DNA of 64,000 bases from a virus (Duplodnaviria > Heunggongvirae > Uroviricota > Caudoviricetes), in IMG/VR virus record IMGVR_UViG_3300045988_158233; one strand, written 5' to 3'. The notes under the pieces were generated by a model. That model searched no databases, was not told the DNA's origin, and worked only from the letters and a program-made list of their open reading frames with translations. Position numbers and translations under genes: made by a program. Shown one piece after another: positions 16,582 to 39,567 of the stretch (positions are counted from its first letter, which is position 1; each line of letters starts with the position of its first letter).

Positions 16582-16797
16582 ATGATCGTATTAAGTAAAC
16601 GGGAGAAGGAAACGCTTCATGAAATCAGTAAGTGGCCGGAGTTCCCTGAGTACTGGAAGCCTAAAACGCGAGCTAAGTTAGAGCGTTTAGGGTTGGTTGC
16701 AAACGTTTCTGAAACGTGGTGTTCGGCCAACTACCAGTTAACTGATAAAGGGAAAGTATTGCTACAGCAATTAGTAGAATCAGGAGTGTTAAAATGA
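16582..16797 (+). CDS. Hypothetical small protein
   Basis: 71-aa ORF. Confidence 0.3.
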   Translation: MIVLSKREKETLHEISKWPEFPEYWKPKTRAKLERLGLVANVSETWCSANYQLTDKGKVLLQQLVESGVLK

Positions 16798-16942
16798 TTC
16801 CATACATCTCATTAGCTTTTATGGGTGGCTTCCTTATCGGCTTCGGCATCTGTCGTGATTTAATTAAGCAGGAACTTAAAACCAAAACACTGTGCATCGG
16901 AAAGCGTGTGTATCGGGTAGTTCATGAAACAAAGGTGAAAAA

Positions 16943-17233
16943 ATGAGCAATTTAACTTCTTGGGAATGGTGGTTGGCCACCTATTTCTTAGCGGCCGGAG
17001 TCGCATTCGCCTTTTACGTAGGTCAGTTAGTCGTAAAACTGTTGCTGATTAAATTTGCTAGTCATAAACGTATCGATGATGGTCTGTGGCGTCTTGGCAC
17101 CCTGGTGGAAACTCGCTACGGGCAACTTAAGGAGAACGAAACCATTACTATCCAGGCGAAACGATTCACTGCCACCATCACAAGAACACCTAGTCGTAGA
17201 GTGGCCTTGATCAAAAAAGTCACAACCGAATAA
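16943..17233 (+). CDS. Hypothetical small membrane protein
   Basis: 96-aa ORF with N-terminal hydrophobic segment WWLATYFLAAGVAFAFYVGQLVV. Confidence 0.3.
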   Translation: MSNLTSWEWWLATYFLAAGVAFAFYVGQLVVKLLLIKFASHKRIDDGLWRLGTLVETRYGQLKENETITIQAKRFTATITRTPSRRVALIKKVTTE

Positions 17234-18008
17234 AAACATCACGATAAGTATTTACTTACTTATCTTTTATGTATAAGATGACTTTGTTTTCGTTGAGACG
17301 CGACTGTTTGAACTTAAATACAAGTGCAAACGAAGAAGTCTATCTGGCAGTAGCCTAATAAGCCAAACACCAGCGAGGTCAGTTTCCAGCCTCGTTACCG
17401 AAATGGGACACACTGAGCGAGTGTGATTGCAGAACGCAGGAGGGAACATTCATGTTCCCTCCGATGAAGTAACAGAATGGGCGGTTGGTATATTTTCAAC
17501 TCCATATGACTCCCGGATTCTTAGCCACTGACCGCCCATCCTGTTACGTCATTTTGTTCAATTATGTCGTTTATACTGGGTTAAAAAGCGGCGACGTAGC
17601 CCGGCTGGTATGGTTAGCCAGCACACAACGTTGAGGCCATTACATTTTTATCAATTCTAAGGTTCTATTCACAGAGATACCGGCGAGCGTTGATATGTAA
17701 CATGTTGGGCAAACATTCAATCGGAGTAGTGGCCTCAACGTTGTGAAGACAGGATTGTTGTGTAGGTTTAACCACTGTTGCCATTGGTGCCTGTTTTCAC
17801 AACAAATGATTCCATACATCACATTGTATAAATTACAAAGTAGGTGCTGTCCTCAAAAACATCATCTACTTAAAGATTTTGCCTACTATTGAGCGAAGTC
17901 GAAAGCGTCTGGCACTAACGAAAAGTGCAAGTAGCGGTGCGTTTCCTGGCAGAAACTAAACCGTCGCGATTGGCACTGTTGAGTAATAAATACTGGCAGT
18001 GTCGAATT

Positions 18009-18083
18009 GATGGTGTAGCTCAGCGGTAGAGCAGTTGGCTGTTAACCAACTGGTCGGTGGTTCGAATCCACCCACCATCGCCA
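18009..18083 (+). tRNA. tRNA-Asn (anticodon GTT)
   Basis: Manual fold: acceptor gatggtg/caccatc, T-arm ggtgg-ttcgaat-ccacc, anticodon loop ctGTTaa, 3' CCA encoded. Confidence 0.75.
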
Positions 18084-18088
18084 ATTTA

Positions 18089-18175
18089 GGAGAGTTAGTC
18101 CGTAGAGGTAGCGGGGTAGACTGTAAATCTACTGTCATTGCGACTCGGGTGGTTCGACTCCATCACTCCCCACCA
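18089..18175 (+). tRNA. tRNA-Tyr (anticodon GTA), class II with long variable arm
   Basis: Manual fold: anticodon stem gtaga/tctac with loop ctGTAaa, long variable arm, T-loop ttcgact, 3' CCA; one A-C mismatch in the acceptor stem. Confidence 0.65.
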
Positions 18176-18179
18176 AATT

Positions 18180-18255
18180 GCCGGTTTAGCTCAGTTGGTA
18201 GAGCGCCTGCCTTGTAAGCAGGATGTCAGCGGTTCGAGTCCGTTAACCGGCACCA
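18180..18255 (+). tRNA. tRNA-Thr (anticodon TGT)
   Basis: Manual fold: acceptor gccggtt/aaccggc, anticodon stem cctgc/gcagg with loop ctTGTaa, T-loop ttcgagt, 3' CCA. Confidence 0.75.
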
Positions 18256-18479
18256 ATACAACGATAAGATCATTACGGTTAATCGTCGTTCATGTGCACA
18301 ATGACTGGTCGAAAGGTAGTGATCTTACCGTTGTGGTGGATTCGCAGACTGATGCGATAGCTTTCTTGGATGTTAGGGAAATGCGGCCGCAAATCTTCCC
18401 TTTCGCGAGCGGTGATCGTCCGTAGTCCTAATTGGCTGCACCGTATGCCGGAGATTCAGTACCGGCTATCACAACGGCC

Positions 18480-18566
18480 GGAGAGTAGGGAGCATGGTGC
18501 TCAAGCGGTCTTGAAAACCGTCCCATTGCGCAAGCGATGATGGTTCGATTCCATTACTCTCCGCCA
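18480..18566 (+). tRNA. tRNA-Ser (anticodon TGA), class II with long variable arm
   Basis: Manual fold: acceptor ggagagt/actctcc perfect, anticodon loop ctTGAaa, long variable arm, T-loop ttcgatt, 3' CCA. Confidence 0.7.
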
Positions 18567-18722
18567 GACACAGCGTTGAGCGGTTTGGCCTTTTAATCAA
18601 CTCGATTAAGACTCCGCTAACATAAACCAGACCGCTCAACGCTGTGATAGACAATTACGGCAGACGTTCTTAACCATAGCTTGCTAACATCCTAGCAACA
18701 CTTTTTTTTCAGCGCAAAATTC

Positions 18723-18744
18723 AAAGGGGCTTCGGCCCCTTTTT
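18723..18744. terminator. Bidirectional rho-independent terminator
   Basis: aaaggggc-ttcg-gcccctttt, flanked by A-run on one side and T-run on the other; separates the tRNA cluster from the convergent minus-strand gene. Confidence 0.7.
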
Positions 18745-18751
18745 GGCTGGG

Positions 18752-19972
18752 TTAATTAAAACCGAATGAATTAAGTTCTGCTTTGAATTTATCGACCATT
18801 TTTTCAACTTCGTTTACAATTGCGTGAATCTCTTCGTCTTTTCTCGGATTAGAATTGAGGTCAAAATATGCCTTATATAAGGCATATTTTGACAAGCTTC
18901 CTTCAATATTTTCAGAGAAAATATTGGTACGACCATCAGTTAATAAGATATCAGCAGATCGGGAATTTAAATTATATTTATAGTAAATCTTTATTAGTCT
19001 GCTTATCTCTTTTTCATTCTTGATTACCCTCTGTCTTTTACCAGCAATATTAAGACTCCAGCCTACATAACTAGTCAGATCGGAATTAAACTTACACACT
19101 TCCGCATCAGCTTTTTCCATATTTAGATTAATATTATTTCTCATGTGTAGCGGTAATTCGTTGAATTTTTGCTGTAAATGCTGTTTGCAGGGATTGTTGT
19201 AAGACCACAGAATTGCGAACGTAGCTCTTTGCATCCGGGTATTCAGATCGATGTTAAAGTTCTCACGATCACGAATCATTTCATCTACATAAAACTCTAC
19301 AGCTTTTCGGTATTCTTTGTTAAAGATCTCGGTAACATACATTTCTAAATAATGGACTTTCGAGATTGCCTCATCAAAAAAAAGCTCACTCTCAAAGAAG
19401 TTGTATTTATTTAAGAGATTAGAAAGTCTACTTAAGTCATAGGTTTTATTATTTTCAATATTAAGACCAAAAATGGCAATTAACAGACTTACTTTATGAT
19501 TAATACTGCTACGTAATTGAGCTATATAAATTCTCTTTTCATCTTCTGCTGATGACAGTAGATAAAACTCTTTATCTAAATAATTTAAAATTAGAATTAT
19601 GTGATTTACATATTTAATGTAAATAGGTTGTTTTGTTACATAATAATAAATGCTTTTGATGGAATTAATGCTCAATTTCGTATTAAACTCTTTGTCATTC
19701 AACAAAGTGTTATTTACGTCCTCAAGTAATTTATCATGTTGCTCTAGTAATATTCCGTACCATTCCTTAAAAGAGGCTTTTTTCATTTCAAGAAGTGAAT
19801 CTGCCGTTAATTGTGTTGCCTTCATTGCAGCTTTTGCACTATTTCTTGCCTCATAAGCAGCCCAAGCAGTAACAAAAGTAGCAAGTGAACCTATAGCCTC
19901 TTTGTATTCTTTAGCCACATCCCAAAAAATAATAGTTATTACACACAATATGAGAATTAATATTAAAGGCAT
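18752..19972 (-). CDS. Hypothetical membrane-anchored protein (AT-rich moron; candidate exclusion/abortive-infection-type function)
   Basis: 406-aa minus-strand ORF; N-terminal TM helix PLILILILCVITIIFW then a K/E/N/I/Y-rich helical domain; very AT-rich codon usage compared with neighbours (by eye). Confidence 0.6.
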   Translation of the reverse strand: MPLILILILCVITIIFWDVAKEYKEAIGSLATFVTAWAAYEARNSAKAAMKATQLTADSLLEMKKASFKEWYGILLEQHDKLLEDVNNTLLNDKEFNTKLSINSIKSIYYYVTKQPIYIKYVNHIILILNYLDKEFYLLSSAEDEKRIYIAQLRSSINHKVSLLIAIFGLNIENNKTYDLSRLSNLLNKYNFFESELFFDEAISKVHYLEMYVTEIFNKEYRKAVEFYVDEMIRDRENFNIDLNTRMQRATFAILWSYNNPCKQHLQQKFNELPLHMRNNINLNMEKADAEVCKFNSDLTSYVGWSLNIAGKRQRVIKNEKEISRLIKIYYKYNLNSRSADILLTDGRTNIFSENIEGSLSKYALYKAYFDLNSNPRKDEEIHAIVNEVEKMVDKFKAELNSFGFN

Positions 19973-20178
19973 GTTATCTATATCGTTAGTTAATTTTGAA
20001 CATAAATGATACTTAGTCCACCGCTAAATTTCATCAAATTTGATAATTTTCTTGACGATCATGTCTCAAAATTATTTATACTTGGCATATTTGAGATATA
20101 TAATAATAGGTAATAACACACCTATCACATTTAAGCATCAACAAGATAAATTACGGACCCAGACCAGAAAGGAAACTA

Positions 20179-20427
20179 ATGAGAAATATACTTATCTACG
20201 GACGAGATAACTGCTCATACTGCAAACGTGCGGTCGAGCTGGCGAAGAAACTAAAGGGACATGGCTACGGTGATTATGAGTACATCGACATCACCACTGC
20301 CGGTATCGATAAGGAAAAACTTAGCGAAATTGTTGGTAAACCGGTAGAGACTATCCCCCAGGTGCTGATCGATGGCCAGCCGATTGGCGGATACACAGAA
20401 CTGGCTGCATACGTCAGCACCCTCTGA
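20179..20427 (+). CDS. Glutaredoxin / NrdH-like thioredoxin-fold protein
   Basis: 82 aa; CxxC active site in RDNCSYCKRAVEL near the N-terminus. Confidence 0.7.
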   Translation: MRNILIYGRDNCSYCKRAVELAKKLKGHGYGDYEYIDITTAGIDKEKLSEIVGKPVETIPQVLIDGQPIGGYTELAAYVSTL

Positions 20428-20432
20428 TTTTA

Positions 20433-20455
20433 ACGGCTCACAGGAGCCGTTTTTT
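20433..20455 (+). terminator. Rho-independent terminator
   Basis: acggctc-acag-gagccgt hairpin followed by tttttt. Confidence 0.65.
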
Positions 20456-20638
20456 ATTCCCACCAAACTCACACCTGTTTCCATTAAAATTCAAAAAACA
20501 ACGCCTGAATGATTCCATACCTACTATGTATGGAATCATTGCTGAAAATGAGTTACTTTTACTCTTGATCCTATAAGAATCTATGCCTAATATACTGTTT
20601 ACTTATACAGTGCATCGGCGTAACTCGGTGATTGTCAT

Positions 20639-21742
20639 ATGAAAAATAGCTTTGACAGAGCACGCGCTGCGGAGAACACCTCAAAAGAGGCGATAGAGTA
20701 TCTCGAAAGAGCATCTCAAATGCAGGCCGTTATGATCTCCCAGGTCAGCAATGACATGAGATTCTCGGACGCATTCATGTTATTCACTCGCTTATCTCTG
20801 CTGATAACCAGACGTCGGCCAGAGATCGCTGTTCATTGTATTTTGATACATGTTTTGCCGCACATTGCCGATGTAAAAGTAAGTGACATTAATAGGTTCA
20901 TGGTGAACCAACTGGTCAACCCACTAATACTGGATGGCAAAATTGTTATGGGCCGCCGCGTTTTCTCTCTGATGAAGCAGTTCCTTAGCTGGTGCGCCTT
21001 CCAGGGGATGATAGACGTGTCACCGTTAAACGATATGTCACTTAACAAAGTTGCCGGTGGCGCAAAGCCCACACCTCGCGAGCGGAAGCTGACCGACGCA
21101 GAGGTATGGGTGTTCTGGAATATATGGGACTACTTCAATGTGTGTGCTGGTACAAAATGGGCGGCCAGGCTGTGTCTTGTATCAGCAAGACGACCTGACG
21201 AAGTACTGCGGGCTAAAAAAAGTGAGTTCAATCTTAAGCGTGGGGTTTGGAATCAAGGCAAGAGGAACAAATCTGCCCGTGAGCATTCTCTGCCTTTAAG
21301 CTCATTAATGCGCACTTGTATTGAAGAGTTGTTCGAATATGGTAAAGACAGCCAGTGGCTCGTGCCTTCGAATAAAAAAATCGGGAAAGACCTTCCTATG
21401 TCTAAAGTGGCAATAGCCCAGGCATTACGTCGTATTCTGGAACGACCAGAACTGATGGAGCTTGAGCCATTTACACCCCGAGATTTGCGCCGTACTGCGC
21501 GTAGTTACTTCCCAGCATTAGGCATAAGCCAGGAGGTATCACGTAAAATCATGAACCACAGTCTTGAGGGGATAGATCGGGTCTACGACCGGCACGATTA
21601 TATGGACGAGATGCGAGACGCCTTAGAAAGTTTCTCGACGTACATCGCATCAATCGTAGAGCAACCGGATTTAGACGAAATTGACCACAAATTTAAGGGA
21701 GATCGTCTATCAACAGAGCTTATTCGTGTAAATTTTTCATAG
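20639..21742 (+). CDS. int: Tyrosine recombinase / phage integrase
   Basis: 367 aa; catalytic-domain residues in order: R in ARRPDEVLR, H-x-x-R in HSL...RRTARSY, and Y in RVYDRH. Confidence 0.75.
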   Translation: MKNSFDRARAAENTSKEAIEYLERASQMQAVMISQVSNDMRFSDAFMLFTRLSLLITRRRPEIAVHCILIHVLPHIADVKVSDINRFMVNQLVNPLILDGKIVMGRRVFSLMKQFLSWCAFQGMIDVSPLNDMSLNKVAGGAKPTPRERKLTDAEVWVFWNIWDYFNVCAGTKWAARLCLVSARRPDEVLRAKKSEFNLKRGVWNQGKRNKSAREHSLPLSSLMRTCIEELFEYGKDSQWLVPSNKKIGKDLPMSKVAIAQALRRILERPELMELEPFTPRDLRRTARSYFPALGISQEVSRKIMNHSLEGIDRVYDRHDYMDEMRDALESFSTYIASIVEQPDLDEIDHKFKGDRLSTELIRVNFS

Positions 21743-22123
21743 AGACTTTATGGCCTCAACAACCTTTTGTGATGCGCCTTTCTCTTTACCGAATCGCTCG
21801 TTATATGCAGCAAGAACCTGTTTTTCGTCCTCGTTAAGAGGAGCAGTGCCTTCTTTGTATAAAAATGCTGCGAGTTCGGGTTGGCGTTCTTCCAGCACCA
21901 TCATCATAAGACGACTTGGCTCAATACCCAGTGCCAGCGCCAGCGGACGAACCTTATCGATAGGCAAAGGAATTTTGCCGCTTTTAATTAAAGAAAGGTT
22001 GTTGGCGTTTTTATACCCAATTGTTTTGGCTATCTGGGCCTGGCTCATAGGTGAGGATTCAATCAACCCTGCGATAAAAGCAGCGTAGCGACTTTCTATA
22101 AATTCAATCTTGTTATCAGACAT
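21737..22123 (-). CDS. HTH (XRE-family) transcriptional regulator, repressor-like
   Basis: 128-aa minus-strand ORF with helix-turn-helix signature MSQAQIAKTIGYKNANNLSLIKSGK; divergent from a small + strand ORF across an AT-rich intergenic region. Confidence 0.6.
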   Translation of the reverse strand: MSDNKIEFIESRYAAFIAGLIESSPMSQAQIAKTIGYKNANNLSLIKSGKIPLPIDKVRPLALALGIEPSRLMMMVLEERQPELAAFLYKEGTAPLNEDEKQVLAAYNERFGKEKGASQKVVEAIKSL

Positions 22124-22374
22124 GGTTACAACCTTTGCGCGTTCAATTCTCTCTGGTAAGTGCTTACCGATATTACATCAAAGGTTAGGGTTGTAAAGCT
22201 ATTATCATTTTTTTCGATAGGCACTTAAAAGACCGGTTAAAGGCCATTGCACGGAGAAAAATTAGCCCAAAACAGGTAAGAAAATCAACTTGCATATGAT
22301 ATGTATGTATTCAGTATTGATACAAATTTTAGTAGTATTCCTTACCATAGTATAAGTTAGAATGGATTGATTGA

Positions 22375-22587
22375 ATGAACACCACTATTTCCAGCCTAAT
22401 CGCTCTTGAGATCGGACACGTACAGAAATTAGCTGATGAGTGTGTAGCTGACATCCTCACCGATCTACCGAATGAGCAGATTCAGGTTGGTGTGAATGAC
22501 ACAACTGGATTTATATTCGAACTTAACAACAAACGCTTCACGCTTCTCAATACCGGCTCCGGGTCTTTAGCCGTCAGAATCTGTTAA
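22375..22587 (+). CDS. Hypothetical small protein, divergent from the repressor (Cro-like position)
   Basis: 70-aa ORF. Confidence 0.3.
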   Translation: MNTTISSLIALEIGHVQKLADECVADILTDLPNEQIQVGVNDTTGFIFELNNKRFTLLNTGSGSLAVRIC

Positions 22588-26331: not shown

Positions 26332-29300
26332 CTTCTCACTTGGGGAGTCGGCTCTAAAAGCAGAAAACGCGGTGAAGATTGCCAGAGAAGCTGGCTACAC
26401 CGCTGTAATTTCAGCAGATAGCATGAATATTGCGAGCGTTATTCCACTACAACGTGCCGCTGGTGACGACATGGCGGTTATTTGTGGTGTGAAACTAAAC
26501 ATTGTTGATGATCCCACATACGAGCACCGGGCTAAACTTGCTAAAGAATCTATGAGATGTATGGAATCATTAGAGCGGGGACGTAACTACTCGTTTACCG
26601 CTCTAATTAAAAATGAGCAAGGATATCGCGACATCTGCGAACTAATGACGGTGGCCAACACACGAGAACAGTTCTACTTTGTACCGCGTCTCTCGCTCGA
26701 ACAGTTGGTTTCTACATATGCCAAAGGCAACATCATCCTGCTCACTTCCGACATCGGTAGCGTGTTCCAACGCAACGATTTTGCAAAAATCATAAGCTCA
26801 CTGATTACAGCGGGCGGGAAAGACAACTTCTATAGCGTGGTTTATCCGCACCCTACCCCATTCTACGACCAGATTAACGTCCGAGCGATGAAAGTAGCCA
26901 GCGCACTGAAAATAGAGCCAGTAGCGTTCTATCCCGCTTATTACGAATCGATCGACGATGCAGACATTAAAGACATTGCGCACATGGTTACGAACAACAT
27001 AAAAATCGACCAGCCGCATCGTCTGCGTATCCCCCACCAGCGAGATAACGCCGTCAATGGTCGCCGCCATCTCCTTGAGGCGCTTAAAGCCTTCTCCGTT
27101 CGCATGGATGTGCCGGTAACAGCTGCAATGGCCTCAACAACGCAGGACTCCATTATCGAAGCCTGTACATGGCGCTGGCATGAATTGCCACCAGCACTGC
27201 CCAAGATGGCAGACGACGAGCCTGCAACGCTGATGAAACTGGCTGTTGCAGGGCTGCGCAAACGTCTTACCACAAAAGAGTTTGGCTACACACCACCGGC
27301 TTCTGAGAACAGGGTTTATGTTGAGCGACTTAAGTACGAAATGGACACGCTTACTCGCCTGGGATTTTGTGGTTACTTCCTGATGGTACGCGATCTGATG
27401 AATCACAGCCGTGAAACTGGCATTCCTGTCGGGCCTGGTCGTGGTTCCTCCGCTGGCTCTTTGGTGGCATGGTGCATAGGCATAACCAACGTCGACCCTA
27501 TCCGTCACGGTCTTCTGTTTGAACGTTTCATCAACCCTGAGCGTCTCGACTTGCCAGATGCGGATTTGGACTTCAGCCAGGCACGTCGCCATGAGGTGAT
27601 CGAGTATCTGAATGAACGATACGGCGAAGATTACGTTGCGGGTATTCCGAACTTCACATATCTGGGCGCAGCCTCTGCACTACGTGACACCGCTCGTATT
27701 TATGGTGTGGAGTCCGCAGATATGGCGGTATCAAAAGAACTGAAGAACGTCGAGGATGATAGCCTTCCATTGGAAGAGCTGCGCGAACAACTGGCAAGTC
27801 TCGACAAATACGCGACAAAATATCCTGATGCATTCAATGCAGCCTGCAAGTTACAAAGCCTTATGCGTGGCTTTGGTAGACATGCGGCAGGGATGATCGT
27901 AGCAGGTGTTCCTCTGACAGAACGTACACCGGTTGAGCGCCGTGGTGACGCGCGTTGTATCGCATTTGACAAGCGTTACTGCGAGGCTATGGGCCTAATT
28001 AAGCTGGACGTACTTGGCCTAGCAACTCTCGATTTGCTTGATAGTGCAAAACGCTACATTAAAGAGAACACAGGTGAAGATATCAATCTTGATGCCATTT
28101 CTCTTGAAGATCGCAAGGTGCTGGATGGTTTTGCTGCTGGGTACACTCAAGGTGTTTTCCAGCTTGAATCAGGCCCAATGCGCAAGCTGCTTAAAGATTT
28201 AGGTGGTGGAATTGAGCCAATGAGCTTTAAAACGGTCGTCGCTACGACTGCGCTCTTCCGGCCGGGGCCAATTCAGTCAGGCATGTTGGATGACTATGTT
28301 TCTGTCGCCAAAGGCTTTATGACGCCGGAATCATTACACCCCGTTCTTGATGAACTTACCGCGGAAACAAATGGCGTGATTCTCTATCAGGAACAGACGA
28401 TGAACGCGACTCGATTGCTTGCCGGCTTCACAATGGCTGAAGCTGACGCTGTGCGTTCCGCAATCGGTAAGAAGAACATGGAAAAAATGAAGAGCATGGG
28501 CGAGAAGTTCATCGTTCAGGCTCAAGCTGGCTGGATAGACGTTGAGCTGGAAGATGGCACTACACAGCGCATTCACCGTGCGGAACATTTTAAATGCGAA
28601 GACGGAACTCTGAAAACTGTCGAAGAGGCACTTGAGCACGGCGCAAAACTACCTATAAACGCAGTACGCGTTACAGCGTCACATCCAGGGCTATCAGAGA
28701 TGAAAGCGAAGGAGATCTGGACCGCATTCGAAAAAAATGGTGCCTACCAGTTCAACAAATCACACTCTGTTGCTTACTCCTTGATCAGTTATCAATCTAT
28801 GTGGTTGAAAACTCATTATCCCGCAGAGTTTTTCGCTGCTGCTCTCACTATTCTTGGCGAAGATAAACACCAGGGGCTGGTTAAAGATGCGCTGACCTAT
28901 GGTATTCGCGTATTGCCACCAGACGTTAACGTGTCATCCAACCGAATCGAGATCCGCACGCTTGAAGATGGCAGCCAGGTGCTGTATGCGCCCTTCTCTG
29001 CTGTGAAGGGGTGTTCTGAGAATGGCTGCCAAGCCATCATGAGAGCGCGAGAAAAAGTTGGCGGCAAATTCGAGTCACTGGCGCAATTCGAAGAAGCTGT
29101 CGAGAAACGTGCCTGTAATAGTCGAGTGCGCGAATCGCTGCAAAAAGTAGGGGCGTTTGCATCCATCGAGCCAGGTAGTCTGCCAGCAACTGATCCAGAG
29201 CGCCTACGCGACCAGGCTGAATTGATGGGAAACCTTGTCATAGACGCAGTTAAAGCCTCACGTCCGTTTGAGATGAACTCCAAACGTTCGGCTGAGATTA

Positions 29301-37817: not shown

Positions 37818-38351
37818 CACCGCTGACAGCATACACAATCAACTGCCGCTGATAGCATATCGAGAGTCTATCTCACCGCTCACAGCATACTTTACTCGAT
37901 TTTTTACCGCTGACAGCATACTTAAGACATTGCATGAATAATGTGTACCGGTATGGGTATAACCAGAACAAAATTACCGCTGGCAGCATACGAAGGTCTG
38001 ATATATGCCATTAATTACCGCTGATAGCATATCCAAACAAAAATTCCTCAATAAAACACCGCTGACAGCATACGTTCTATCAGGGAGCAGCAGGCAATAA
38101 ATACCTTTCACTACAAGTAATCAGCGCAATGGGAATAGAATGTTAGTGAGCGCAAACCTATATGGAATGCACTCTTCGAGGTTAGTAACCACTGGGGAGG
38201 TATAAAAGAGCATTGAGTGGTGATAGATGATTTACCGCTCACAGCATACGTTTATCTCACTATACCGCTGGTAGCATATCTTTAACCGTTCACAGCATAC
38301 TTTTCAGAAAAATAGCCGCTGATAGCATACATTTCACCGCTGACAGCATAT
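37818..38351. repeat. Iteron array downstream of repA (about 12 copies of a 17-bp repeat, consensus yACCGCTGAyAGCATAy)
   Basis: Copies at about 37818, 37844, 37874, 37905, 37975, 38026, 38057, 38233, 38263, 38284, 38314, 38335; irregular spacing; all in the same orientation. Confidence 0.8.
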
Positions 38352-39445
38352 CAAAGCAGTTTGAGACTATTGGAAAGGATCTCAATCATCTTGATATTTT
38401 CAGGCGTCAAATTCTGCGAAAGTTCAGTTATCTTGTTGATAATGTTCTGTTTAGCATCAATTTCCCCGGCTTTCTCATCTGGTTTTTTGGGTTCGATGTC
38501 TTCAGGTTTTGGCGGTGCGACTTTAAGTTTTGGATTGCGGCTGTGAATCTGGATATAGATCGACCGCCCTCGCTTAATCTCGCTGTATTCGAGATAGCCC
38601 AAATCTTGGAGAGCTTTTAAGCCGTTACGTATAGTCTGATTCTGCGAGCTTACATTCCTGCTACTCAAATTGAGTCGCGCACGCAATCGAGCAAGCGATA
38701 CCGGCGCAGGCTTGGTTGGAAGACTTTCGATGAAGGTGTACAGAGCCTGTGCTGTTTCTTTGCGTGGTAGCTTATTGATAACCTTTAACTGCAAAAGAAC
38801 CTTATGGTCAAAGCGATATAGTTCGGCCAGCTTCGGTTCTGCATAGAACACCACCGTATCTTTCTGCTCGTTGTAGTCCACGCTATTGATGAGGTGCACC
38901 ATCAGAAGCGAGATCTTGTTAGAGCCGTCGACGTTCTTTTCTTCATACGTTCTCTGGAAAGACAGAGTTGTACGCATGATCTTCAAAAGACTGTTTGTAA
39001 GCCGGTCGCGGAGTGTTTTGCGGATCTGTGACGATGGATAGCCACAAAACTTCGCAAATTTCGTGATGCTTAACTCGACACGACCGTTAGGTTCGCCGTA
39101 TTCTGCCAGCGAACGCACAACGCCCACCCACGTTTTGAAATCATGATCCATGTCGAGACGAGGACCGGTTATCTTGATATCGGAATAGCCTTCAGAACGG
39201 GCTACTTCGAGCTGAACAAGCTCCTTTGAAGCATCGATCTCATTTGGCTTGTTACGCTTGCTGTATTTTGTCCCCTTGAGCGTGGGCACGAACAATCCCA
39301 GCCGCATCAACGCAATTGGTTGGACTGTATTGTTGCTATTAGGGACAAGTTCCCCTGTGTACAATTCAAGGGAACCTTCTTCAAAGTTGTCGAGATTATC
39401 TTCTACTTCTTTGTTATTTTTACCTTTTTTATTTTTTGTGGACAT
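38351..39445 (-). CDS. repA: Iteron-type plasmid replication initiator (RepA-like)
   Basis: Minus-strand ORF flanked on both sides by iteron arrays; start trimmed to the Met (MSTKNKKGK...) that does not overlap the upstream iterons; basic N-terminus, ~365 aa. Confidence 0.65.
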   Translation of the reverse strand: MSTKNKKGKNNKEVEDNLDNFEEGSLELYTGELVPNSNNTVQPIALMRLGLFVPTLKGTKYSKRNKPNEIDASKELVQLEVARSEGYSDIKITGPRLDMDHDFKTWVGVVRSLAEYGEPNGRVELSITKFAKFCGYPSSQIRKTLRDRLTNSLLKIMRTTLSFQRTYEEKNVDGSNKISLLMVHLINSVDYNEQKDTVVFYAEPKLAELYRFDHKVLLQLKVINKLPRKETAQALYTFIESLPTKPAPVSLARLRARLNLSSRNVSSQNQTIRNGLKALQDLGYLEYSEIKRGRSIYIQIHSRNPKLKVAPPKPEDIEPKKPDEKAGEIDAKQNIINKITELSQNLTPENIKMIEILSNSLKLL

Positions 39446-39464
39446 GTGGACACCTTTGTCATTC

Positions 39465-39567
39465 AACCGCTGACAGCATACTTGATTTGCCGCTGACAGA
39501 ATACCAAAAACAGTTGGCAGCATACGGTGAACCGCTGACAGACTATCAATTACCGCTGACAGCATAC
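39465..39567. repeat. Iteron array upstream of repA (about 5 copies; probable origin/autoregulatory region)
   Basis: Copies of the same repeat at about 39465, 39488, 39515 (partial), 39529, 39551. Confidence 0.75.

Follow-up and report, generated by a model that had tools for sequence, protein, structure and literature searches.

Phage P1, a low-copy plasmid-prophage, carries one loxP site per genome next to cre, in which two perfect 13-bp inverted arms enclose a short asymmetric spacer and which is served by a single tyrosine recombinase without an arm-binding domain. A related scheme, i.e. a tyrosine recombinase that converts dimers into monomers at a short inverted-repeat site, is found with ResD/rfsF of the F plasmid and with XerCD at dif, cer and psi; dif and cer sites from different replicons share conserved arms around a variable central region. 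Here, we describe a locus that shares the listed features of Cre/loxP and, in the scheme proposed below, those of the other systems as well. It lies in IMG/VR virus record IMGVR_UViG_3300045988_158233, a 64,000-nt stretch of DNA from a virus of the Caudoviricetes (the whole of which is called the window in the following), where a palindrome precedes int, the gene of a tyrosine recombinase. Palindrome and int constitute a well-known kind of system. The single copies of the palindrome arm that are embedded in the surrounding genes and all face the palindrome, on the other hand, match no described system known to us.

By its sequence, the window is assigned to the plasmid-prophages of the SSU5 group (SSU5-like phage-plasmids), being ~98% identical to the Escherichia phages Cyrano, which is the pLF82 plasmid-prophage, and CMS-2020a; its identity to Salmonella phage SSU5 is 77%. 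In a survey by Pfeifer et al., the recombination genes that persist in the SSU5 group include tyrosine recombinases, for which no site is described (PMC7969092). In the searchable literature, we found no description of the palindrome, and searches with the motif strings returned only unrelated primer matches.

Each palindrome arm contains the 12-mer ATGATTCCATAC, which occurs five times in the window: on the plus strand at 16794-16805, 17806-17817 and 20509-20520, and on the minus strand at 20528-20539 and 26559-26570. Allowing up to one mismatch, these five matches compare with 0.37 expected, none of 100 shuffled sequences reached five, and in a k-mer census the ATGATTCCATAC family was among only a few repeated word families of the window. 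In the complete 108-kb Cyrano genome, the motif is likewise present at these five positions only, all of them inside 9.2 kb. The initial annotation of the window had called the 12-mer far more frequent than chance, in agreement with these counts, and had given the three plus-strand positions correctly, but it missed the minus-strand copy at 26559-26570 inside dnaE; the other minus-strand copy is the right arm of the palindrome.

The palindrome itself (Table 1) has a 13-7-13 geometry and ends 98 bp before the ATG of int at 20639, so that its earlier description as a perfect 13-bp inverted repeat with a 7-bp spacer about 100 bp upstream of int holds. This geometry is that of a simple tyrosine-recombinase site, in which two inverted arms of ~11-14 bp enclose a spacer of 6-8 bp, and it is retained in all relatives; the palindrome lies upstream of a tyrosine recombinase gene in >150 related loci. 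A scan of IMG/VR in which both arms were fixed by design and any 7-nt spacer was allowed returned 101 loci; an int homologue starts 45-101 nt downstream of the palindrome in 98 of these, and the remaining three are cut by the end of the locus. Because the scan fixed the arms, loci were also collected via an unrelated neighbour, a 96-amino-acid (aa) open reading frame (ORF), and via dnaE. Among those anchored on the 96-aa ORF, the palindrome is found wherever int is present, with one exception (L118), and the dnaE-anchored loci agree in that a perfect palindrome accompanies int.

The arms vary with the recombinase. Homologues with 59-100% identity to Int (clade A) are accompanied by ATGATTCCATAC, while those with 43-50% identity (clade B), encoded on replicons of Xenorhabdus, Providencia, Erwinia, Rahnella and Pantoea, have (G/A)TGACTCCAGAC and keep arms of 10-14 nt and a 7-nt spacer (examples in Table 1). 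Two of the 12 arm positions thus differ with the recombinase clade, the architecture is constant and the spacer is free to change. Nine canonical spacers were recovered in the IMG/VR scan (CTACTAT, CTATTAA, TTGGTAG, TTGTAAG, TATGTAA, TTATATA, TCTTTAG, TCCTTAG and CTATAAA), the overall number of versions being about ten, and even elements with 98-100% identical Int bear different ones (CTACTAT, TCTTTAG, TCCTTAG). Such differences between near-identical elements rule out a fixed attB partner, and the drift of the spacer would fit a site whose only recombination partner is a second copy of itself. We regard the co-variation of arm and clade as the decisive result, since this is the pattern to be expected of a tyrosine-recombinase crossover site. 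Together with the linkage to int in every lineage examined, it bears out the earlier suggestion of a recombinase core site, and we conclude that the palindrome is very probably Int's own site. The Erwinia, Rahnella and Pantoea loci, which lie on large replicons of plant-associated Enterobacterales, have no phage genes nearby and adjoin unrelated metabolic genes. Since int and palindrome occur there without a phage neighbourhood, gene plus site behave as a self-contained module.

To the left of the palindrome, a short A/T run at a distance of 8-10 bp is kept in most lineages, and the DNA further left is unrelated cargo. The run might have a role of its own, e.g. as a bend or a site for an accessory factor. 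In some E. coli plasmids, the stretch homologous to the window begins at 20484-20490 or coincides precisely with the start of the left arm at 20508, which makes the palindrome the right-hand border of a variable cargo region.

The protein encoded by int matches Pfam PF00589 (E = 2.9e-10) and PF22022 and belongs to phrog_1 (integrase). The catalytic Arg and Tyr are retained: across 24 homologues, R185, R284/R285 and Y316/Y321 are invariant and H307 is nearly so. No match to the arm-binding domain PF13356/DUF4102 was detected in Int, while PF13356 is present in more distant homologues. A sequence search of the PDB with phmmer found nothing for Int. Its AlphaFold model (mean confidence score, pLDDT, 83.8; the N-terminal half modelled as helices only) has as its closest solved folds residues 82-397 of Tn1549 Int and 75-356 of lambda Int, i.e. 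the parts of these proteins without arm-binding domains.

Which reaction takes place at the site is suggested by its distribution. Among 5,426 complete E. coli genomes, 218 carry the int-upstream region; all 219 places are on plasmids of ~95-155 kb, and no chromosomal copy was found. The complete Cyrano genome has a single palindrome. Based on the plasmid-only location, the differing spacers, the symmetric arms, the lack of a detectable arm-binding domain and the single site per genome, multimer resolution that keeps the plasmid monomeric is the probable role of the palindrome. Of the possibilities raised in the initial annotation, namely attachment, resolution and inversion, it is resolution that fits best, while the other two fare poorly for reasons given below. 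Two Int monomers would bind the two arms of one palindrome, two palindromes would synapse, and strands would be exchanged across the 7-bp spacer. As the element lives only as a plasmid with one copy of the site, recombination would occur between the two copies present in a plasmid dimer and return monomers. The single copies would provide extra sites for Int monomers, with a regulatory, road-block, titration or architectural function instead of a crossover. Taken as a whole, this combination of a resolution crossover site at the palindrome and added Int sites elsewhere appears to be the best explanation of the locus and a fairly probable one.

Several observations weigh against resolution or are awkward for it. 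Int has Arg in place of the usual His in its HxxR motif (RDLRR), and the putative int promoter of the main lineage has a LexA box, which is atypical for a housekeeping resolvase. In lysogens of Cyrano (LF82), int is expressed at ~49.5 normalised units in a table that may not be strand-specific; the repressor reaches 95.8 units and the neighbouring lytic genes (ligase, orf50, dnaE) 5-10 (PMC9928086, S1 Table). Such a level fits a maintenance function, subject to the same reservation about strand.

The putative int promoter lies between the palindrome and int, and its -10 hexamer overlaps a candidate LexA box, 16 of whose 20 positions match the LexA consensus. This layout of promoter and box is conserved in Klebsiella-type relatives. 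In the int upstream regions read from a distant clade-A locus and from clade-B loci, the box is absent. At its other end, int (plus strand) converges on the repressor gene (21737-22123, minus strand) with an overlap of 6 nt, and SOS-induced transcription of int would consequently run antisense into the repressor gene, a possible route to induction. No peptidase domain was found in the repressor by Pfam. Cyrano is inducible by ciprofloxacin (PMC9928086).

In comparison with the systems introduced above, the mode of action proposed here would by analogy be closest to Cre/loxP and ResD/rfsF, while the predicted fold is closest to the cores of the lambda and Tn1549 integrases. The spacer is 7 bp long as opposed to 8 bp in loxP, and the arm sequences are unrelated. 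Int and Cre show no detectable similarity in sequence, and Cre ranks far below lambda Int and Tn1549 Int in the fold search. To our knowledge, P1 has neither dispersed single lox half-sites nor a LexA box at cre. No sequence similarity was found between the palindrome and the rfsF, dif, cer or psi sites. Unlike XerC plus XerD, the recombinase is a single, element-encoded protein, and unlike in cer and psi, no adjacent accessory sequences are evident. The 7-bp overlap is the length found in lambda core sites. However, the lambda and Tn1549 integrases differ from Int, which has no arm-binding domain, no arm-type sites of another sequence and a perfectly symmetric core.

The single copies pose a different problem. 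Of the four half-sites listed in Table 1, (a), (b) and (e) share the asymmetric 15-16-nt consensus (A)ATGATTCCATACATC, which equals one palindrome arm plus ATC, and (d) is degenerate; over 12-13 nt, the single copies are identical to the arm. The second arm is missing: the 12 nt at its expected place, 7 nt downstream, neither resemble it nor are conserved. Across clade A, the single copies are almost invariant, even where the neighbouring proteins are only 37-60% identical. The first two had been described as sharing AAATGATTCCATACATC-W-CATT, and indeed 22 of 23 positions match between these repeats, which are 1012 bp apart; the 23-bp unit exists in this lineage, but what is conserved more widely is the consensus of 15-16 nt, the full length being lineage-specific.

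Each of the four sites illustrates this constraint in its own way. The core of (a), TGATTCCATACATC, is unchanged in the examined relatives whose 50-aa protein is only 42-52% identical, and one sub-lineage (L133, L137) has a single substitution, TAC to TAT. Site (b) forms an island of identity: in a distant group, its flanks are non-homologous and no tRNA follows, and the 14-mer is unchanged. Site (d) is degenerate in the window, and Klebsiella-type lineages have a good single site, TTGATTCCATACAT(C/T), at the same position; it may in part be a by-product of conserved V-W-N-Q codons. In (e), the clade-A alignment reads xGA TGT ATG GAA TCA TTR (CMESL) with zero synonymous changes, while almost every neighbouring codon varies across the aligned sequences; in a few dnaE-anchored loci a change is seen, and then only in the flanking ATC, which becomes ACC. 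The corresponding DnaE loop of clade-B phage-plasmids reads GETQLPV or DEELLPI and lacks the motif. In locus L210 (IMG/VR 2802429232_000002, ~6953), 9 nt of the dnaE half-site are duplicated in tandem (CATACATCT), which adds three codons and is direct evidence that the loop tolerates change. Chance or coding constraint was rejected as an explanation of the dnaE copy, given the unrelated loop in clade B and the lack of synonymous changes in the motif codons. From these alignments, we conclude that the constraint on the single copies acts at the level of nucleic acid and not of protein.

The initial annotation had also noticed that copies of the 12-mer start short ORFs beginning with MIPY and regarded these as more likely a by-product. 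This is correct for the other copies, which have no coding meaning, but the copy at 16794 is the true start of a conserved 50-aa ORF. 'MIPYI' mini-peptides were rejected as the reason for conservation: a ribosome-binding site is present only at the 16794 copy, the dnaE and int copies are antisense, and the palindrome arms would be left unexplained. The 50-aa ORF, which is conserved across the whole group, encodes a small protein with a hydrophobic N-terminal part and a basic tail (MIPYISLAFMGGFLIGFGICRDLIKQELK...), which in size and shape resembles a type I toxin or a holin-like peptide.

The orientation of the single copies is the same in every lineage: plus strand to the left of the palindrome, minus strand to its right, so that all of them face the palindrome. 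For four independent sites, a shared orientation has a chance of roughly 1 in 8 to 1 in 16, which is suggestive but not proof. Whether Int binds the single copies appears evenly balanced to us. In favour of Int, which is the simplest candidate, the sites equal its arm, cluster around int and exist only in the clade with the ATGATTCCATAC arm. Other findings count against it. In clade-B phage-plasmids, the palindrome is present and the 10 kb to each side of it contain no single copies, which means that the copies are not needed for the basic reaction and are a clade-specific addition. The single copies always continue with ATC, as no palindrome spacer does, and their binder could therefore differ from Int. 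Their positions are unlike those of operators, i.e. a start codon, codon 85 of dnaE and ~100-190 nt upstream of genes. Finally, SSU5 and locus L178 lack int and retain the single copies, though this is weak evidence either way, as both are close relatives of int-carrying genomes and the phylogenetic profile is thus uninformative. The co-variation test that served for the palindrome was discarded for the single copies, since none exist in the clade with a different arm.

Precedents for such sites can be found. MrpR (YopR), a protein with a tyrosine-recombinase fold, binds a 15-bp element, SPBRE, that recurs at several positions in the genome of the Bacillus phage SPbeta; it has lost the catalytic residues and acts as the master repressor (PMC10516654). 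SroF of phi3T is among the fold matches of the Int model. MrpR/SPBRE is the closest parallel for single recombinase-type sites of 15-16 bp that serve a purpose other than recombination, yet Int differs from MrpR in that it keeps its catalytic residues, coexists with a separate helix-turn-helix (HTH) repressor that has its own operator family, and has single sites that are not at obvious promoters. Extra half-sites in a fixed orientation are also known from the third symmetry element of Flp/FRT, from DR1/DR2 of integron attI and from DR1/DR2 of Tn4430 TnpI. These accessory sites, however, are located within tens of bp of the core, while the copies described here are 0.7 to 6 kb away and inside conserved genes.

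Several other explanations of the copies have to be weighed against Int sites of this kind. That they serve programmed inversion or excision in a shufflon-like manner, or that the palindrome is an attP for chromosomal integration, seems very improbable to us. Sites (a) and (e) do form perfect inverted repeats of 20 nt in this lineage (the shared bases being AATGATTCCATACATCTCAT), including the identical 7 nt beside the arm, the ATC next to the arm in all single copies would be enough for a first strand swap, and the Rci/sfx sites of shufflons have only one conserved arm. However, in most lineages these 7 nt are not shared among (a), (b), (d) and (e), dnaE would be disrupted by an inversion, and order and orientation are constant in >150 IMG/VR loci. 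With chimeric queries, an (a)x(e) inversion junction was found in 0 of 219 E. coli plasmids and an (a)x(b) deletion junction in 0 of 210. Constant order and missing junctions imply that the single copies do not serve as crossover sites in a stable manner, and stable rearrangement at them is, as far as these sequences tell, largely refuted. The same data, together with the missing second arm, leave unsupported the proposal that the direct repeats are recombination sites bracketing the interval between them, although these repeats are strongly constrained elements and may well be bound by Int. As for attP, two defining features of a lambda-type system are lacking: neither an attB nor an integrated copy was found in the chromosomes of the E. 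coli genomes, and no arm-binding domain was detected. The spacer differences between near-identical elements also speak against it. Alternatively, all copies including the arms could be operators of a different DNA-binding protein, be it the HTH repressor, the 71-aa 'regulator' encoded by ORF 16582-16797, the 70-aa product of ORF 22375-22587 or a host factor, which we judge distinctly unlikely. An operator function for the adjacent repressor had been offered in the initial annotation, the palindrome is situated ~25 bp upstream of the putative -35 hexamer of int, and the loss of int in SSU5 and L178 extends to the repressor and the 70-aa ORF, so that co-occurrence cannot separate the three. Yet the promoter region of the repressor (22124-22374) has no copy of the motif and instead carries GGTAAG-TG-CTTACC (GGTAAG-TA-CTTACC in a Klebsiella relative), a member of a palindrome family, ATAGGTAAGTnnCTTACCTAT, with ~15 candidate copies in the window at up to two mismatches. 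The repressor was rejected as the binder on account of this different and abundant family at its own promoter, which overturns the earlier alternative. Palindrome and int are furthermore found on non-phage replicons without the repressor or the 70-aa ORF next to int. The 71-aa 'regulator' is disfavoured because the one distant clade-A locus that was examined has all the single copies but no such ORF between ligase and orf50. The half-site centres of the palindrome are 20 bp apart, a spacing unusual for an HTH dimer, and we know of no E. coli transcription-factor consensus that the motif resembles.

An RNA-based function of the single copies is unlikely in our estimation. According to this explanation, a small RNA from the region of (b) pairs over 14-16 nt with the int and dnaE mRNAs and silences them in the lysogen, in the manner of the antisense immunity RNAs P1 c4 and P4 CI. 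Sites (a) and (b) are in the sense orientation and (d) and (e) are the exact complement within plus-strand genes, placing motif and anti-motif on different mRNAs. Site (b) is inside a conserved, strongly folding non-coding region (z = -5.4), and in the hairpin that follows it, stem changes compensate between lineages, as judged by eye, while the loop stays similar. Two of the three substitution types would preserve G-U pairing (A to G in (b) of SSU5, C to T in (a) of L133/L137), but the third, ATC to ACC in (b) of L193, does not and is not compensated at (e). No convincing promoter was found for a (b) RNA, Rfam gave no match in the region after (b), RNAalifold returned no consensus structure from a simple alignment, and (a) has the same sense as the proposed regulator. 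An RNA mechanism also leaves unexplained why the motif equals a recombinase arm and why the presence of single copies is confined to the clade with this arm. Scars of insertions into a full site, which would give a nested + + [+ -] - - arrangement, were rejected, since the copies are in intact genes and under strong selection. A replication terminus or fork trap or a polarity of the FtsK-orienting (KOPS) type found no support: the GC skew is uninformative, the site is not opposite repA and the motif is, by eye, unlike a Tus Ter site.

Regarding the interval between the direct repeats, 16794-17817, the initial annotation had recognised a long non-coding stretch, which is confirmed (~570 nt, structured), but it had counted one small ORF where there are two conserved ones (50 and 96 aa). 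The non-coding region as a whole, 17234-18008, is conserved, the z-score given above refers to 17560-18010, and the hairpin after (b) is flanked by GATC sites in most lineages. The region could be a processed leader RNA or an origin.

The gene order around the locus is helicase, primase, ligase, three to four small ORFs, the structured non-coding region and a tRNA cluster, followed by variable cargo, int, the HTH repressor on the opposite strand, the 70-aa ORF, cobT, cobS and dnaE. The tRNA cluster (Asn, Tyr, Thr and Ser; 18009-18566) shares ~93% identity with its counterparts in P7 and D6; the cluster of Cyrano has a different content, without Tyr. Between tRNAs and palindrome, the segment 18752-20427 constitutes the variable cargo, with other genes in Cyrano and the Klebsiella relatives; here, it comprises glutaredoxin and an AT-rich ORF of 406 aa on the minus strand (phrog_18168), for which neither Pfam nor PADLOC gave a match. 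Further away, repA (37.8-39.6 kb) is flanked by 13 iterons in a layout resembling oriR/incC-repA-incA of P1.

Three further sequence families were noted in the window. The ATAGGTAAGTnnCTTACCTAT palindromes of ~18-20 bp are found in intergenic DNA, one of them at the repressor promoter (22155-22168); in its distribution, the family looks like the regulon of the master repressor and is comparable to the dispersed C1 operators of P1. A short A/T palindrome, AGAAAACAAnTTGTTT, recurs ~25-40 nt upstream of gene starts and may be part of a phage-specific promoter or an activator site. The translation start context (A)GGAAAAACACATG is common to nine genes and recurs before one gene in a distant phage-plasmid group.

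Table 1. Coordinates of the features discussed in the text (numbering of the window), together with the palindromes of distant relatives
Feature	Position	Strand	Remarks
Palindrome AATGATTCCATAC-CTACTAT-GTATGGAATCATT	20508-20540		perfect; left arm 20508-20520, spacer 20521-20527, right arm 20528-20540
A/T run TTCAAAAAAC	20490-20499		left of the palindrome
Putative int promoter	20565-20612	+	-35 TTGATC 20565-20570; -10 TAATAT 20588-20593
Candidate LexA box TACTGTTTACTTATACAGTG	20593-20612		overlaps int -10; putative function
int	20639-21742	+	367-aa tyrosine recombinase; core-binding and catalytic domains, no arm-binding domain
Half-site (a) AATGATTCCATACATC	16793-16808	+	covers parts of both the 71-aa ORF (stop codon) and the 50-aa membrane-protein ORF (ATG)
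Half-site (b) AATGATTCCATACATC	17805-17820	+	non-coding, ~190 nt before tRNA-Asn
Half-site (d), degenerate; plus strand reads GTTTGGAATCAAG	21245-21257	-	inside int, ~606 nt in
Half-site (e); plus strand reads GATGTATGGAATCATT	26556-26571	-	inside dnaE, codons 84-89
50-aa ORF	16794-16946		conserved, phrog_6302
96-aa ORF	16943-17233		conserved
Candidate repressor-type operator	17244		in the non-coding region
Weak tRNA/tmRNA-like match	17307-17409		
Long hairpin	~17625-17745		20-bp stem
ATAGGTAAGTnnCTTACCTAT candidates	3026, 8460, 13728, 17244, 24812, 31554, 35078, 36700, 37031, 40534, 45221, 49978, 54818, 57032, 62001		approximate positions
Iterons CCGCTGACAGCAT(A), 13 copies	37820-38349 and 39467-39565		two clusters, either side of repA homologue ORF 38351-39565 (-)
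AGAAAACAAnTTGTTT copies	6008, 9244, 22654, 36223, 57927, 58656, 63196(-)		
(A)GGAAAAACACATG	10691, 26299, 35119, 36726, 47742, 57957, 58680, 62053, 63276	+	all on the plus strand
Palindrome of L182			Xenorhabdus phage-plasmid; GTGACTCCAGAC-TTAGTTA-GTCTGGAGTC
Palindrome of L183			Providencia phage-plasmid; ATGACTCCAGAC-TACATAG-GTCTGGAGTCAT
Palindrome of L184			Erwinia plasmid; GTGACTCCAGAC-CTATTAA-GTCTGGAGTCAC
Palindrome of L185			Photorhabdus; mixed arms TGACTCCAGAT and TGATTCCAGAC
Palindrome of L186			Rahnella, 221-kb contig; arm TGACTCCAGAC inside 14-nt perfect arms
Palindrome of L187			Pantoea vagans, 507-kb megaplasmid; arm TGACTCCAGAC, 11 nt perfect

Clinical Enterobacteriaceae frequently contain SSU5-like phage-plasmids, as the E. 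coli counts given above illustrate, and these elements carry resistance and toxin genes; their maintenance is not described at the level of a site in the searchable literature. The palindrome, if it is the resolution site, could explain how these low-copy plasmids of ~110 kb avoid the dimer catastrophe. The two arm classes would, if the assignment to Int is true, define two new and possibly orthogonal recombinase/target pairs of the 13-7-13 type, and these diverged pairs could be tried as tools alongside Cre/lox.

Beyond the palindrome, a 15-nt word has stayed near letter-perfect while the proteins encoded beside it diverged to 37-60% identity and even dictates five residues of a DNA polymerase loop, a degree of conservation that we read as strong selection for an undescribed function. 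It is conceivable, albeit rather doubtful, that Int holds two jobs, resolving dimers at the palindrome and acting as a monomer on the four oriented half-sites in int, dnaE, the start of the membrane-protein gene and the non-coding region. With int behind a LexA box and convergent with the repressor gene, this would, if true, link the SOS response, lytic replication and plasmid maintenance, and Int would be an active recombinase that doubles as a road-block regulator, standing between Cre-like enzymes and catalytically dead repressors of the MrpR type.

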